Assembly (NCBI GenBank): GCA_964558665.1
Contig: CAZLFA010000001.1
Coordinates: 52,562 to 116,561, forward strand
Origin: an uncultured Syntrophaceae bacterium
GTDB taxonomy: Bacteria > Desulfobacterota > Syntrophia > Syntrophales > PHBD01
Length of the DNA: 64,000 nucleotides
Reading direction: 5' to 3'
Part shown: in pieces, positions 59,063 through 64,000 of the stretch
Numbering within the stretch: the stretch's first letter is position 1
Layout of the letters: every line of letters begins with the position of its first letter
Program-made: the position numbers and the translations under genes
Notes under the pieces: model-generated
Seen by the model: only the letters and a program-made list of their open reading frames with translations
What the model was told of the DNA's origin: nothing
Database searches by the model: none

Positions 59063-60391
59063 TCATGATCTGCTCATCATGGACCGAAATCGGGAGATTG
59101 ACTCCTGAGCATTCTTTTTATACCGGGGATCGACAATCAGCGCTGCCTCTTTTTCCGCCTCCTGAAAGAGTACAACAGCAACGCGTCTTTCCACCTTCAG
59201 ATGATAAATATCCTGGGCTGCGGAAAACAGGGCGTGGAACCGCTGTAAGGGGTCTTTCAATTTGAGAATAGCAGATATCCATGCCGTCATCTTTTTTTTC
59301 GCTTCACATTTACTGCCGGCAGCAAAGTTGGATTGCCAGATAAATTTATACAAGCTGTTTGGAAAAGGGTGCTGTGCATTTGATTTCATGATGGCAGCAT
59401 CCGCTGTCAGGACATGGAGTAACCGTTCCGCTTCGTCGGCATAGCGCAGGGTTGCCGCCTTGTCGAATGGCGGATCCGCGTATGGGGCAGGACTGTTATT
59501 GCCGGCATGTAAATTATGTAAATTGTAAAGACGGCTGTTGCGAGCGGCTTTACCGATGCCGTACGGCATTTTATGCATGAGGGTACTGACAACTTGATCC
59601 CTGTCCGGGTCGTGCGGCATCTGTTCAAGCATGCTGACGATTTTTGCATAAGCGCTTCTTTCAAGCATCCACTCGGCAAATACAACCAGGTCATAACTGC
59701 CGTATGGTCTTTTATCGGTTTCAATTGTTCCTGCAATGTGCAGCATCAGCAGAATATATGCAAAGGGATCGCCTTGGTCTTTTTCCTTTTCTCGTATCCA
59801 GGTCGCCATGCGAAAAAGAAATGCGGCATCGTTGATCCTTTCCGCAACGGTTGCCTGCGGCGATATCCGGCCGTCGGCCAGCAGTGATTGCAGGGAAAGG
59901 CGGACTGCCTTTCTCCGCAACGCTTCGTCAGAAAATATTTTGTCTTCAATAGCCCGGAAGACAACCTCCTTGAGCAGGTAACCGTTAATGGTGCGGTCAC
60001 TGCCCGATGATTGTCCGTTGACTATCTGTGATGCCCTGTCCAGCACTGCAAGGGCGCAGGCATGATGACCGTCTTTAAACCGGTCGCCGGCTATTTCCGC
60101 AAGGACTGCAATCGTTTCGCGAGGGGCGGTCTTATTTGGAGGAACTTCTGGGGTTTGGCACCCTGTGCTTTTTATCTCAGCCTTTGAGTATAGCTGGTTT
60201 TTCCAGAGTGAATCAAGATCATCGCCGGCAGTCTCCGTGCTTACTGCCTGTGTTTGCTCCGGCTGAAACCGGGCGGAAATTTCGCACTCGTATGCATTCA
60301 AGACAATGTATGCGCCGGGGACTGCGAAAAGAACAATTACAAGAGTGATCCAGGTATATTTTTTCTTTAAAACAGTAATGAGTGAATGCAT
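59063..60391 (-). CDS. Hypothetical membrane-anchored helical protein
   Basis: 442-aa ORF with one N-terminal hydrophobic segment and a GGAGG RBS, 19 nt downstream of the ankyrin gene. Confidence 0.7.
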   Translation of the reverse strand: MHSLITVLKKKYTWITLVIVLFAVPGAYIVLNAYECEISARFQPEQTQAVSTETAGDDLDSLWKNQLYSKAEIKSTGCQTPEVPPNKTAPRETIAVLAEIAGDRFKDGHHACALAVLDRASQIVNGQSSGSDRTINGYLLKEVVFRAIEDKIFSDEALRRKAVRLSLQSLLADGRISPQATVAERINDAAFLFRMATWIREKEKDQGDPFAYILLMLHIAGTIETDKRPYGSYDLVVFAEWMLERSAYAKIVSMLEQMPHDPDRDQVVSTLMHKMPYGIGKAARNSRLYNLHNLHAGNNSPAPYADPPFDKAATLRYADEAERLLHVLTADAAIMKSNAQHPFPNSLYKFIWQSNFAAGSKCEAKKKMTAWISAILKLKDPLQRFHALFSAAQDIYHLKVERRVAVVLFQEAEKEAALIVDPRYKKNAQESISRFRSMMSRS

Positions 60392-60410: not shown

Positions 60411-62159
60411 TTACTTAGCGCCAGCGGCAGTAAGGATCCGGATCGTCTCGGGATCATTTGTTTCTTTCGCCCATTCAAGAATTGTCCTAGTTACCGTTTG
60501 CGTCTTGATATCCGGCCCTACTGTTACTGTATGCGGTCCTTCCTGTCTGATTCCCTGGACAACATCATCCTTAGTGTAACCCCTCCGGACGTCTAGCCCG
60601 TTCTTCAGCAGCAGATTCAGTATCCTGTGCCTGTCCTTATTGCTGCTCTGTACTGCTTCTATGGCGGCCGTGTCGCTTATTCTGATGCCGGAACGCAGAA
60701 GTAGTTCGACCATCTCCGAAGATCCTTTCCAGATTGCATTAACAAGTGCGGAGATAGTGCTGCCACTATCTTTTGCACCATAATTAAGTAGTAATATTAC
60801 GGCCTCAATGTTTTCATTATCAACTGCTTCAGCGAGAGAGGAGTAGGGGTATTGGTCCGGGTCTTTCAGATTTGGGTTGGCGCCCGCTTTAAGGAGCAAA
60901 TACAGAAGATCATTTCGCCTGTTCTCTATAACGAAGTCCAGGGGGCGTCTTTCATAATCATCAAGCACTTCATTTACATTGCGTCGCCCCTTGATCAGTG
61001 TTGTCGCGGCAGCAGTTCCTGGCCTGGAAAGGGCATATTCCCAGGGATTTATATCCTTGCTTTTGGCTTCCTTTTTAATCTTGCCTGAAGCAGTGAGGAC
61101 ATAGTTGACAGGCCGAACCTCGAATTTGCAGACGGTCTGGAGTTTGTCCCTGTCCAGCATGTAGATTTGGCGATGTTCGGCAAAGGGTCCGTCCTGTCTT
61201 TCATCCAGATAAATTCTGCCGTCGACTATAAAGGGAATGACTGTCTGGCCGCCGCAGCCGCCGGCCGGCAGTTTATCCGTCAACTGCCGGTCGACAGTCG
61301 TCCTGTCTGACGTCAGAACGCCCAGAAAAGTCCCCCCGCACCCCCGGCCACGTCCCGATGATAACTCAAGAGAGACAACAATCTCCTTTTTCCCGTCATT
61401 GTTTATATCGATCAGTGCCGCCTTTTCTCCTGCATGGGTCTCATAGAATTCTGCAGCTTGAAGAGCTCGGTGGGACAGGGCATGAAGTTTGTTGAAAGTT
61501 ACGGGTTTCAGCTTTCCGGCCTGCGCCATGCCGCATACCCTGTGATTGCGGGACGACTTCAGACGCTGATAAGGACGGCTTTTCTGGTCAAACTCGCACA
61601 CGATCTTTGACCGGTTTTGAGGACTGATATATTCCAGATACTGAAGAGTCTGGTCTGTCTTACCCAGGACATACAACACGCCTCTATGCCTGATAAAAGC
61701 GCGATCATAGGCCCAGCGCAGATTATCCTCTTCCCAGTCATCGTCGGAGGAATGCTTTATGTTGATCTTTTTGTCCGCTTTACTTCTGAAAACAGAATAT
61801 TCTTCAAAATGGGCGGTTCCTCCGGAGGTGATAAAGACTCTTTCAGGAATGCCGTCGTTGTTGATATCGAGCAGGCGCTTAAATACGATTCCGTAAGATA
61901 TGCTGTCCGGGATGCGAACAGCGGACGAATCAACCGGATCTGACGAGATGAGAATTTTTTTAAGCTGCCCTCTGTTGGCATAATCAGCAACGTACTTGCA
62001 CACTCCGTTTGACGGAGCTTTGCCTTTCTTCACCTTTGATAAAGCTTCGTCGGGTATCGCTAGCATCATCAGGATGATGAAAAAGATCGCCATCATGGAT
62101 GCTCTTGACCGTTCCTCTTTACGCAACGGCGTTTCATGGAAAGATCTCTCTGTAAACAT
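60411..62159 (-). CDS. Exported protein with a tandem DINNDG-containing domain and C-terminal ankyrin repeats
   Basis: AAGGAGG RBS, hydrophobic signal segment, ankyrin-like LLKAGANPN, LLLNYGA, LLRSG, LLLKNG.DV. Confidence 0.8.
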   Translation of the reverse strand: MFTERSFHETPLRKEERSRASMMAIFFIILMMLAIPDEALSKVKKGKAPSNGVCKYVADYANRGQLKKILISSDPVDSSAVRIPDSISYGIVFKRLLDINNDGIPERVFITSGGTAHFEEYSVFRSKADKKINIKHSSDDDWEEDNLRWAYDRAFIRHRGVLYVLGKTDQTLQYLEYISPQNRSKIVCEFDQKSRPYQRLKSSRNHRVCGMAQAGKLKPVTFNKLHALSHRALQAAEFYETHAGEKAALIDINNDGKKEIVVSLELSSGRGRGCGGTFLGVLTSDRTTVDRQLTDKLPAGGCGGQTVIPFIVDGRIYLDERQDGPFAEHRQIYMLDRDKLQTVCKFEVRPVNYVLTASGKIKKEAKSKDINPWEYALSRPGTAAATTLIKGRRNVNEVLDDYERRPLDFVIENRRNDLLYLLLKAGANPNLKDPDQYPYSSLAEAVDNENIEAVILLLNYGAKDSGSTISALVNAIWKGSSEMVELLLRSGIRISDTAAIEAVQSSNKDRHRILNLLLKNGLDVRRGYTKDDVVQGIRQEGPHTVTVGPDIKTQTVTRTILEWAKETNDPETIRILTAAGAK

Positions 62160-62238
62160 ATTCCGCCTCCTTTTCCCGGCTATGATGGTTCTCTTTCATG
62201 CCGGGACTTTATTTTGGCTGTCATCCTGACTCGGCAAG

Positions 62239-62344
62239 GTGAAGAAATTTTGAAAAACAGATGAAAAAGAGATGAAAATTCTCCTGTCAAAAAACGGTTT
62301 TCACTTTTCATGCATTATTCATTTTCTTTTCATAATCCCTTCAC
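62239..62344. promoter_or_regulatory. Mirror-image arrays of 11-bp-phased TTCA(T/C) boxes in a divergent promoter
   Basis: Plus strand: TTCAT 62307, 62318, 62329 and TTCAC 62340. Minus strand: TGAA at 62240, 62251, 62262, 62273. Confidence 0.7.
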
Positions 62345-62414
62345 TCTGCGGAGAGAGACTGCCCATCAAGAAAACGGTCCGGAAAGGATCGACTACAGAA
62401 AGGAGAAGGGTGCC

Positions 62415-64000
62415 ATGGAAAAAATGTTGAAGGGAATAACCGGTGTAATTCTGATTTTTGCCATCATGCTTGCCGCCGCTTTATGTTCTGCACAGGAAGG
62501 GGAGTCTAAGACACTCTCACCGTATTTTTTTGTTGAGGGAGGAGATTCGTCGACAGATCAGTTCCCGTTGAAAGAGACGGACATACGGGTGAGAATCAAT
62601 GGTGTGATCGCGGATGTGACCATCAAACAGAAGTATGCGAATCAGGGAAAAAAGCCGATCAATGCCCGTTATGTCTTCCCCGCGTCAACCAGAGCGGCCG
62701 TGCAGGGGATGAAGATGATTTTTGGCGATCAGGTAATTACGGCCCGGATCAAAGAGAAGGAGGCTGCGCAGAAGGAGTTTGACGAGGCAAAAAGCAAAGG
62801 GAAAAGCGCTTCGCTGCTGCACCAGGATCGTCCCAATGTCTTCAGCATGAACGTGGCCAACGTAATGCCCGGAGACATTATCACAGTTGAGCTGCGATAC
62901 ACCGAACTGCTTGTGCCGACGGAAGGCATTTATGAATTTGTGTATCCCACTGTTGTGGGGCCGCGCTATTCCAGTCAGGCACAGGAAGGGGCGGCAATGG
63001 ACGATAAATGGATCCAAAGCCCTTACCAGAAGAAGGGTAAGCTCCAGAAATCGAAGTGGAATATATCAGTGGAGCTAGCCGCCGGGATGGACCTGCAGGA
63101 CGTTACCTGCAGTTCCCATGAAGCTCTGATACAGTTTGCCTCACCGATAAACGCCCGGATTACCCTGGCGGATAAGGAGAAGAATGAAGGTGGGAACCGT
63201 GATTTCATTCTTGGTTATCGCCTTGCGGGGCAGGCCGTTCAGACCGGGCTCATGATGTATGACATCGGGCCGGAGAAATATTTTCTCCTCATGGTACAGC
63301 CTCCCCAGCGGGTGGTTCAGAAAGACATCCCTCCGCGGGAGTATATATTCGTGGTCGATGTATCAGGTTCCATGCACGGTTTTCCCCTGGACATCTCAAA
63401 AGACCTCTTGAAGAATCTTATCGGCAGTCTCCGCTCGAAAGACAAGTTCAATGTCATCCTCTTTTCCGGAGGGTCCCGGGTGATGTCCGCAACCTCGCTG
63501 CCTGCCACGAAGGACAATATCCAGGAAGCGATACGCCTGATTGAGCAGCAGAACGGCGGGGGGGGCACGGAATTGCTGGCGGCTTTGAAACACGCATTAT
63601 CCATTCCCAGGGATGATTCCTTTTCAAGAACGGTAATAGTTGTAACGGACGGCTTCATCGGCGCAGAAAGAGACGTCTTTGACACCATCAGGCAGAACCT
63701 CTCCAGGACAAACTTCTTCGGCTTTGGCATCGGCAGTTCCGTCAACAGGCATCTTATCGAAGGCATTGCCAGGGCTGGTCTGGGAGAGCCGTTCATTATC
63801 ACAAAGCAGGAAGACGCACCGCGTGAGGCGCAGCGATTCTGCAAATACATCAAATCGCCGGTGCTGAAAGATGTTCAGATCGGCTTTGAAGGGTTTGATG
63901 CCTACGATATGGAACCGGCAGCAATCCCGGAACTGTTTGCCGAAAGGCCGCTGGTCATCATCGGCAAATGGCGGGGAGAGGCAAAAGGACAGATAAGGAT
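62415..64000 (+). CDS. VIT (vault inter-alpha-trypsin) plus vWA domain protein, partial (runs off the window edge)
   Basis: Manual translation: signal peptide, then FPLKETD....INGVIADV.I.Q.Y.N, YVFP....AAV..M, A...F..AK..GK.ASLL.Q.RPN.F...VAN, later REYIFVVDVSGSM.G. Not in the ORF track because it has no stop. Confidence 0.9.
   Translation, partial: MEKMLKGITGVILIFAIMLAAALCSAQEGESKTLSPYFFVEGGDSSTDQFPLKETDIRVRINGVIADVTIKQKYANQGKKPINARYVFPASTRAAVQGMKMIFGDQVITARIKEKEAAQKEFDEAKSKGKSASLLHQDRPNVFSMNVANVMPGDIITVELRYTELLVPTEGIYEFVYPTVVGPRYSSQAQEGAAMDDKWIQSPYQKKGKLQKSKWNISVELAAGMDLQDVTCSSHEALIQFASPINARITLADKEKNEGGNRDFILGYRLAGQAVQTGLMMYDIGPEKYFLLMVQPPQRVVQKDIPPREYIFVVDVSGSMHGFPLDISKDLLKNLIGSLRSKDKFNVILFSGGSRVMSATSLPATKDNIQEAIRLIEQQNGGGGTELLAALKHALSIPRDDSFSRTVIVVTDGFIGAERDVFDTIRQNLSRTNFFGFGIGSSVNRHLIEGIARAGLGEPFIITKQEDAPREAQRFCKYIKSPVLKDVQIGFEGFDAYDMEPAAIPELFAERPLVIIGKWRGEAKGQIR

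Follow-up and report, generated by a model that had tools for sequence, protein, structure and literature searches.

The two-component system CreBC is widespread among bacteria, and its signal and purpose are debated. Proposed roles range from carbon metabolism in Escherichia coli to peptidoglycan or beta-lactam stress in Pseudomonas and Aeromonas, and creD (and creA) is linked to creBC in the gene clusters of enterobacteria, Aeromonas and Pseudomonas. Related arrangements of DNA sites are known from other response regulators. An activator of the OmpR/PhoB family binds the pho boxes in tandem; these contain GTCAT within repeats of CTGTCAT. The tor boxes of TorR at torCAD are four direct repeats that contain TTCAT and have the consensus decamer CTGTTCATAT. 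The DNA site of CreB, the cre tag, has been published (PMC4689548; PMC13214185), and the cre/blr tag is reported to be critical for binding of CreB and of its Aeromonas counterpart BlrA, with a TTCAA box also present in Stenotrophomonas maltophilia (PMC4689548). A system of comparable gene content is Pds of Shewanella algae, which comprises PdsS/PdsR, PdsO, a VIT-vWA target and a sortase. Under beta-lactam treatment, a pdsS mutation was selected that increases the VIT-vWA sortase target 388-fold; pdsR and pdsS rise as well, a result that combines self-control with a link to beta-lactam stress (PMC11580497).

Here we describe a locus with CreB-type sites in the window, i.e. the whole 64,000-nucleotide stretch of DNA that was analysed, which derives from a Syntrophales-type host. 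The sites lie in a 256-bp intergenic region between two divergent genes. The original prediction had described mirrored, 11-bp-phased TTCA(T/C) arrays between an ankyrin gene and a VIT-vWA gene. This description proved exact for all eight boxes, and the flanking genes indeed encode an ankyrin-repeat protein on the minus strand and a protein with VIT and vWA domains on the plus strand. The features in the window are as follows (related loci and metagenome contigs are numbered with L).

59063..60391, minus strand: gene for a 442-aa membrane-anchored protein without a family match, 19 nt after the ankyrin gene
60411..62159, minus strand: gene for an exported ankyrin-repeat protein (582 aa), first gene of the minus side, with a GGAGG ribosome-binding site 5 nt before the ATG
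62223..62228, minus strand: -10-like hexamer CAGGAT, exactly 10 nt 3' of the last minus-strand box (CAGTCT in L088)
62239..62276, minus strand: mirror array of four boxes, TTCAT/TTCAT/TTCAA/TTCAC, in 11-bp steps, facing the ankyrin gene
62300..62304, plus strand: ninth TTCAC, out of phase, 7 bp 5' of the first plus-strand box
62307..62344, plus strand: predicted CreB-type array of four boxes, TTCAT/TTCAT/TTCAT/TTCAC, in 11-bp steps, facing the VIT-vWA operon
62355..62360, plus strand: -10-like hexamer GAGACT, exactly 10 nt 3' of the last plus-strand box (GATACT in L088)
62415..64000, plus strand: 5' portion of the VIT-vWA gene (complete product 672 aa), first gene of its operon, running past the window end

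On the plus strand, the TTCAT boxes start at 62307, 62318 and 62329 and the TTCAC box at 62340. On the minus strand, TTCAT is read at 62276-62272 and 62265-62261, TTCAA at 62254-62250 and TTCAC at 62243-62239. The step between neighbouring boxes is exactly 11 bp throughout both arrays, the promoter-proximal box is exactly TTCAC on both sides, and the remaining boxes are TTCAY save for the one TTCAA. All four matches to TTCAYN6TTCAY in the 64-kb window fall in the 256-bp intergenic region, compared to 0.97 expected in the window, and the corresponding three-box pattern was found as two overlapping matches against an expectation of 0.00 (100 shuffles). The ninth TTCAC at 62300, omitted from the original prediction, is probably non-functional; it reads TTGAC in L088, and a similar extra box is present in L009. 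The stretch was detected in DNA metagenome runs from wastewater, biogas and sludge, and no RNA run containing it was found among the sequencing runs searched.

The plus-side operon extends beyond the window. Two metagenome contigs, L001 and L002, carry the ankyrin protein gene and match the final 8548 bases of the window except at 17 positions, and the operon genes past position 64000 were read from the near-identical contig L001 rather than from the window itself. The four-gene module encoding VIT-vWA protein, exosortase-K-like enzyme, CreB and CreC occupies L001 4723-9745, equivalent to window positions 62415-67437, with the following parts beyond the window end.

to window-equivalent 64433, plus strand: end of the VIT-vWA gene (from the L001 overlap)
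window-equivalent 64498-65355, plus strand: exosortase-K-like gene (xrt, 285 aa), from L001
window-equivalent 65330-66013, plus strand: creB (227 aa), from L001
window-equivalent 66010-67437, plus strand: creC (475 aa), from L001

Such a CreBC-like pair had been anticipated, either in the genome or shortly past the window end, and it was found as the third and fourth genes of the very operon that the plus-side boxes precede. The regulator passes the NCBI CreB equivalog model NF008296 (322 bits, cut-off 273) and the kinase the CreC model NF008312 (583 bits, cut-off 356). Over its full length, the regulator is 53% identical to CreB of E. coli K-12, of which it is an orthologue, and its recognition helix and wing (DRTVDAHIKNIRNKL and THRGMGYSL) are near-identical to those of the E. 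coli protein (DRTVDTHIKTLRAKL and THRGMGYSL). The kinase aligns with E. coli CreC at 39% identity over residues 1-474, a stretch that includes the sensor domain. Neither creD nor creA was found beside creBC in L001; in place of creD, the predicted targets here are the exosortase/VIT-vWA operon that contains creBC, and the ankyrin operon. A gene for an FdhE-like protein follows creC after 88 nt on the same strand (L001 3796-4635, window-equivalent 67525-68364), and no such gene adjoins creBC in any of the related loci.

The sorting enzyme matches the exosortase K model TIGR04287 over residues 14-176 (123.7 bits, cut-off 55). Exosortase K is typically paired with MSEP-CTERM cargo according to its family description. 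No such cargo was found in the module, in which the VIT-vWA protein is the cargo: its C-terminus consists of VPEPEF, a membrane helix and RRSSRR, i.e. a PEP-CTERM-like sorting tail, and P640, E641 and P642 of this tail are invariant in 28 relatives. The module thus resembles the Pds system in combining a VIT-vWA protein with a sorting enzyme and an OmpR-type two-component system of its own. It differs in having an exosortase, a PEP-CTERM-like tail and CreBC, where Pds has a sortase, an LPXTG tail and PdsRS. Membership in Pds was rejected, with scores of 424 bits for the target model TIGR03788 (cut-off 552), 165 for the regulator (336) and 134 for the kinase (612), and a class GN sortase was likewise rejected, the sorting enzyme being an exosortase. 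With all Pds models below their cut-offs, Pds is analogous to the module and does not belong to the same family. A literature search found no paper describing the VIT-vWA/exosortase/creBC module, which is unpublished but recurrent.

The arrangement of the boxes was compared with the creD promoter of E. coli, which in the K-12 sequence reads TTCAC-cgtcac-TTCAC-atagct-TTCAA, followed after 10 nt by CATAGT. The window arrays share with the cre/blr tag and creD promoters of the CreBC (E. coli, Pseudomonas) and BlrAB (Aeromonas) systems the TTCAC box, the tolerance of TTCAA and the direct repeat with an 11-bp step. The 10-nt distance from the last box to the -10-like hexamer is also the same as at E. 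coli creD. The window promoters differ in having four slots instead of two or three, in that TTCAT is commoner than TTCAC, and in the presence of two back-to-back arrays in a Syntrophales-type host. What is particular to this locus is the second, mirrored promoter that appears to have recruited the ankyrin operon, cre tags at CreB-dependent promoters being a known kind of element.

No canonical -35/-10 pair facing either gene was found on the two sides of the intergenic region, which fits activator dependence with the activator site replacing the -35 element. Both -10-like hexamers of the window, GAGACT and CAGGAT, are weak. An xAxxxT hexamer exactly 10 nt past the last slot is nevertheless a regular feature of the array loci, with A at the second position in 21 of 21 and T at the sixth in 20 of 21 (examples are TATAGT, CATACT, TAAGCT and TACAGT), and the same layout fits the closest relatives, L084 and L086. 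From this geometry, transcription is predicted to start near 62367 on the plus strand and near 62216 on the minus strand. The last box lies 70 nt from the start codon on the plus side and 79 nt on the minus side, and each start codon is preceded by a good ribosome-binding site (GGAGG or AAGGAG). In promoters from Acidobacteriota, two good boxes are joined by a third slot that is degenerate (TTCTT or TCCAT), and CAnnCT or CAnnAT follows after 10 nt. In six of the Acidobacteriota loci (L023, L024, L026, L040, L044 and L059), the 10-nt gap contains a conserved tATGAACC that reads as an inverted box.

To see how far the arrays are conserved, one genome per species was scanned. Relatives of the VIT-vWA protein, at 53-60% identity, were found at 80 loci, which belong to Desulfobacterota, Acidobacteriota, Binatia and other groups. 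In about 30 of the 80, from several phyla, the VIT gene is followed by xrt-creB-creC; the remainder lack this arrangement. Boxes were counted over 250 nt upstream of the VIT gene, in 24 creBC loci and in 47 loci without a detectable creBC operon. At least two phased TTCAY boxes precede the VIT gene in 22 of the 24 loci with xrt-creB-creC, ten of which have all four, compared to only 3 of the 47 without. As for these three, the contigs of L039 and L049 end right after the VIT gene and L075 has creBC fragments upstream. The two low-scoring creBC loci are L011, which is masked with N, and L015, in which degenerate boxes (TTCGA) keep the same phase; a second Binatia locus, L018, is likewise degenerate in phase (TTCTA, TTCGA). 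Two boxes are reached by 0.4% of shuffled sequences, and among steps of 8-14 bp the signal appeared at 11 bp only.

In the array loci, the box positions are 96-100% conserved and the spacers are variable. L084 and L086, whose VIT proteins are 68% and 66% identical to that of the window, have four boxes each. When both strands of 880 kb of related loci were searched, arrays with three or all four of the boxes were confined to positions directly before VIT genes and to the mirrored arrays of the window and of L032. Regulators from six other loci also pass the CreB cut-off. A natural control is provided by L053 (6001-10956, Bacillota), in which the VIT-vWA and exosortase genes are followed by a non-CreB regulator of the OmpR family (37% identical) and no TTCAY array was found. 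The original prediction would have been weakened by a lack of conservation in orthologous promoters; the arrays are instead conserved in Desulfobacterota, Acidobacteriota and Binatia, where they track creBC.

These data bear on the question of whether the rows of boxes are binding sites at all. Given the A/T-rich spacers and a period of 11 bp, which is near the helical repeat, phased A/T tracts that merely bend the DNA, or a chance low-complexity feature, might be considered. We regard this as hardly credible, since the phyla share an unchanged TTCA core amid variable spacers, the high-GC promoters of Acidobacteriota keep their boxes amid GC-rich spacers, and the chance expectation is essentially zero.

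A second question is which regulator would bind them. The promoters of PhoB are alike in that direct repeats with an 11-bp period take the place of the -35 element, the last of them ending 10 bp from the -10 element, and TorR at torCAD is alike in its four TTCAT-containing direct repeats and in being a regulator of the OmpR family. Both differ in sequence: the pho box core is TGTCA against TTCA in the window, with G before TCA in 0% of the boxes of the array loci, and the tor boxes follow a decamer consensus. Identity of the operon's regulator with either protein was rejected, PhoB scoring 209.5 bits against a cut-off of 296 and TorR, far below its cut-off of 275, 158.9.

Among the matches listed in a metagenome search with the four-box pattern, most were 11-bp tandem repeats and only L142 is a VIT/creBC operon. 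A conserved four-box promoter was seen on five further contigs, one of them from human gut (L092 at 1414, L106 at 5427, L135 at 8634, L159 at 3642 and L164 at 6724). It reads TTCAC..TTCAY..GTTCATAWTTTGTTCAT, then aattgattgg and TATACT (TATAGT in L106), and resembles tor boxes with the same 10-nt geometry. In L128 (10417-11764), the boxes TTCAC/TTCAT/TTCAT/TTCAC are followed after 10 nt by TATCCT, before a gene for an exported DUF3300 protein. No creBC was found on this 13-kb contig, and the DUF3300 gene may be another CreB target in some bacterium.

The GTTCAT-type arrays of the five contigs indicate that the 10-nt geometry is not unique to CreB, and both the tor and the pho boxes share most of the core, so that a different OmpR-family regulator encoded elsewhere, TorR-like or PhoB-like, might bind the boxes in place of the operon's CreB. 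This seems very unlikely given that the arrays track the presence of creBC almost perfectly, that the operon regulator scores above the cut-off for CreB and below those for PhoB and TorR, that E. coli creD has the same layout, and that the base before TTCA is a T with 69% conservation and a G in only 7%. The mirrored TTCA(T/C) rows are thus very probably binding sites for the CreB-type regulator encoded just past the window end, as judged from the creBC operon, the conservation of the boxes and their tracking of creBC, all of which favour the original assignment to a CreB-type regulator of the OmpR family.

The minus side has a much narrower distribution. About 35 relatives make up the small ankyrin family, and many of them have an added LprI domain (PF07007). 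Most of the relatives (P0123-P0135) are longer proteins of 660-900 aa with this lysozyme-inhibitor domain, which the window copy lacks; a shorter, 561-aa start is on record for the latter (P0121). The 442-aa protein gene is probably co-transcribed with the ankyrin gene, and a 439-aa gene likewise follows the ankyrin homologue in L088. Neither the ankyrin gene nor its 442-aa partner occurs in any of the 80 related VIT loci, which points to a lineage-specific recruitment. More distant ankyrin homologues elsewhere (L090, L091) have no arrays, and the ankyrin gene was therefore rejected as a general CreB target.

The ankyrin relative in L088 is 83% identical, and its gene is arranged in the same divergent way. 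L088 retains all eight phased boxes, with a single T-to-C change within TTCAY, while the spacers, the flanks and both -10 hexamers differ (GAGACT to GATACT and CAGGAT to CAGTCT). There is one change in the 40 box positions where about five would be expected, though at about 88% identity the two intergenic regions are too close for strong footprinting of the minus side. An independent case is found in L032 (4418-5848, Desulfobacteraceae), where a mirrored array of three opposite-strand TTCAY boxes faces the gene of a 446-aa GH3 protein (NagZ-like, PF00933), which diverges from the VIT operon. The creBC genes of L032 are convergent and lie downstream of the exosortase gene.

The non-box positions of the minus array match the family consensus as those of the VIT-side arrays do (0.41 in both cases). 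The two window arrays agree at 52% of their non-box positions, compared to 41 ± 11% between unrelated loci, a difference that makes an origin of the mirror array by inverted duplication indistinguishable from shared constraint.

These observations were weighed against the possibility that only the plus array is a promoter, that the minus boxes are inverted upstream CreB sites that tune or repress it, and that the ankyrin operon has a CreB-independent promoter. Such a role would agree with the absence of the ankyrin gene from the other VIT loci, with its array-less homologues elsewhere, with conservation of the minus side in one close relative only, and with CAGGAT and CAGTCT being poor -10 elements. 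Yet the minus side repeats the whole geometry of the family, with four slots, 10 nt and xAxxxT, and its predicted leader of 57 nt compares with 59-97 nt at VIT promoters. In L054 and L056, CAGGAT holds the same -10-like position before the VIT gene, and no other promoter-like site faces the ankyrin gene. Further, the distance between the facing arrays varies (31 bp in the window, 32 in L088, 19 in L032), pointing to two separate promoters rather than to a single cooperative complex of fixed form. We therefore consider a purely auxiliary function of the minus boxes unlikely and lean towards the minus side being a real, lineage-specific CreB-dependent promoter. Co-activation of the ankyrin operon is suggested by this geometry together with the one close relative.

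Taken as a whole, CreB-dependent back-to-back promoters for the VIT-vWA/exosortase/creBC operon and the ankyrin operon are a likely explanation of the region. We hypothesize that it holds two activator-dependent promoters of the sigma-70 type, neither with a -35 element, each with four TTCAY boxes aligned on the same helix face and with a weak xAxxxT 10 nt past the last box. Phosphorylated CreB, the OmpR/PhoB-family product of the third plus-side gene, would bind each array as two head-to-tail dimers and recruit RNA polymerase in the manner of PhoB at its pho boxes. The plus-side promoter would drive the genes for the VIT-vWA protein with its PEP-CTERM-like tail, the exosortase-K-like enzyme, CreB and CreC, so that the CreC signal would switch on its own operon, i.e. 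the surface protein, the sorting enzyme and, by positive feedback, CreBC itself. The minus-side promoter would place the exported ankyrin-repeat protein and the 442-aa membrane-anchored protein under the same signal, probably as a recent, lineage-specific addition to a widely conserved one-promoter module. Activation is presumed here rather than repression; in Stenotrophomonas, creD rises upon deletion of creBC (PMC4689548), and activation therefore does not invariably go with a cre tag.

The two operons may form an envelope-stress regulon. This label is suggested by the analogy with Pds, by the reported role of CreBC/BlrAB in peptidoglycan stress (PMC4689548) and by the nature of the recruited genes. 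More speculatively, the ancestral main output of CreBC could have been a self-activating module that displays one exosortase-processed VIT-vWA protein, with the regulon growing lineage by lineage through back-to-back cre-tag arrays into a defence against cell-wall damage; we offer this only tentatively. The recruits of such a defence may be the ankyrin protein here, whose relatives often carry LprI, and the NagZ-like GH3 enzyme in L032.

Canonical cre tags with the geometry of E. coli creD precede, in several phyla, a compact operon that encodes a single surface protein together with a dedicated exosortase and CreBC. The operon offers a concrete output for CreBC, the control of which is predicted. 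For exosortase research, it provides a one-enzyme, one-substrate system with a predictable on-switch, and the mirrored second array illustrates how a CreB regulon can recruit a neighbouring operon.
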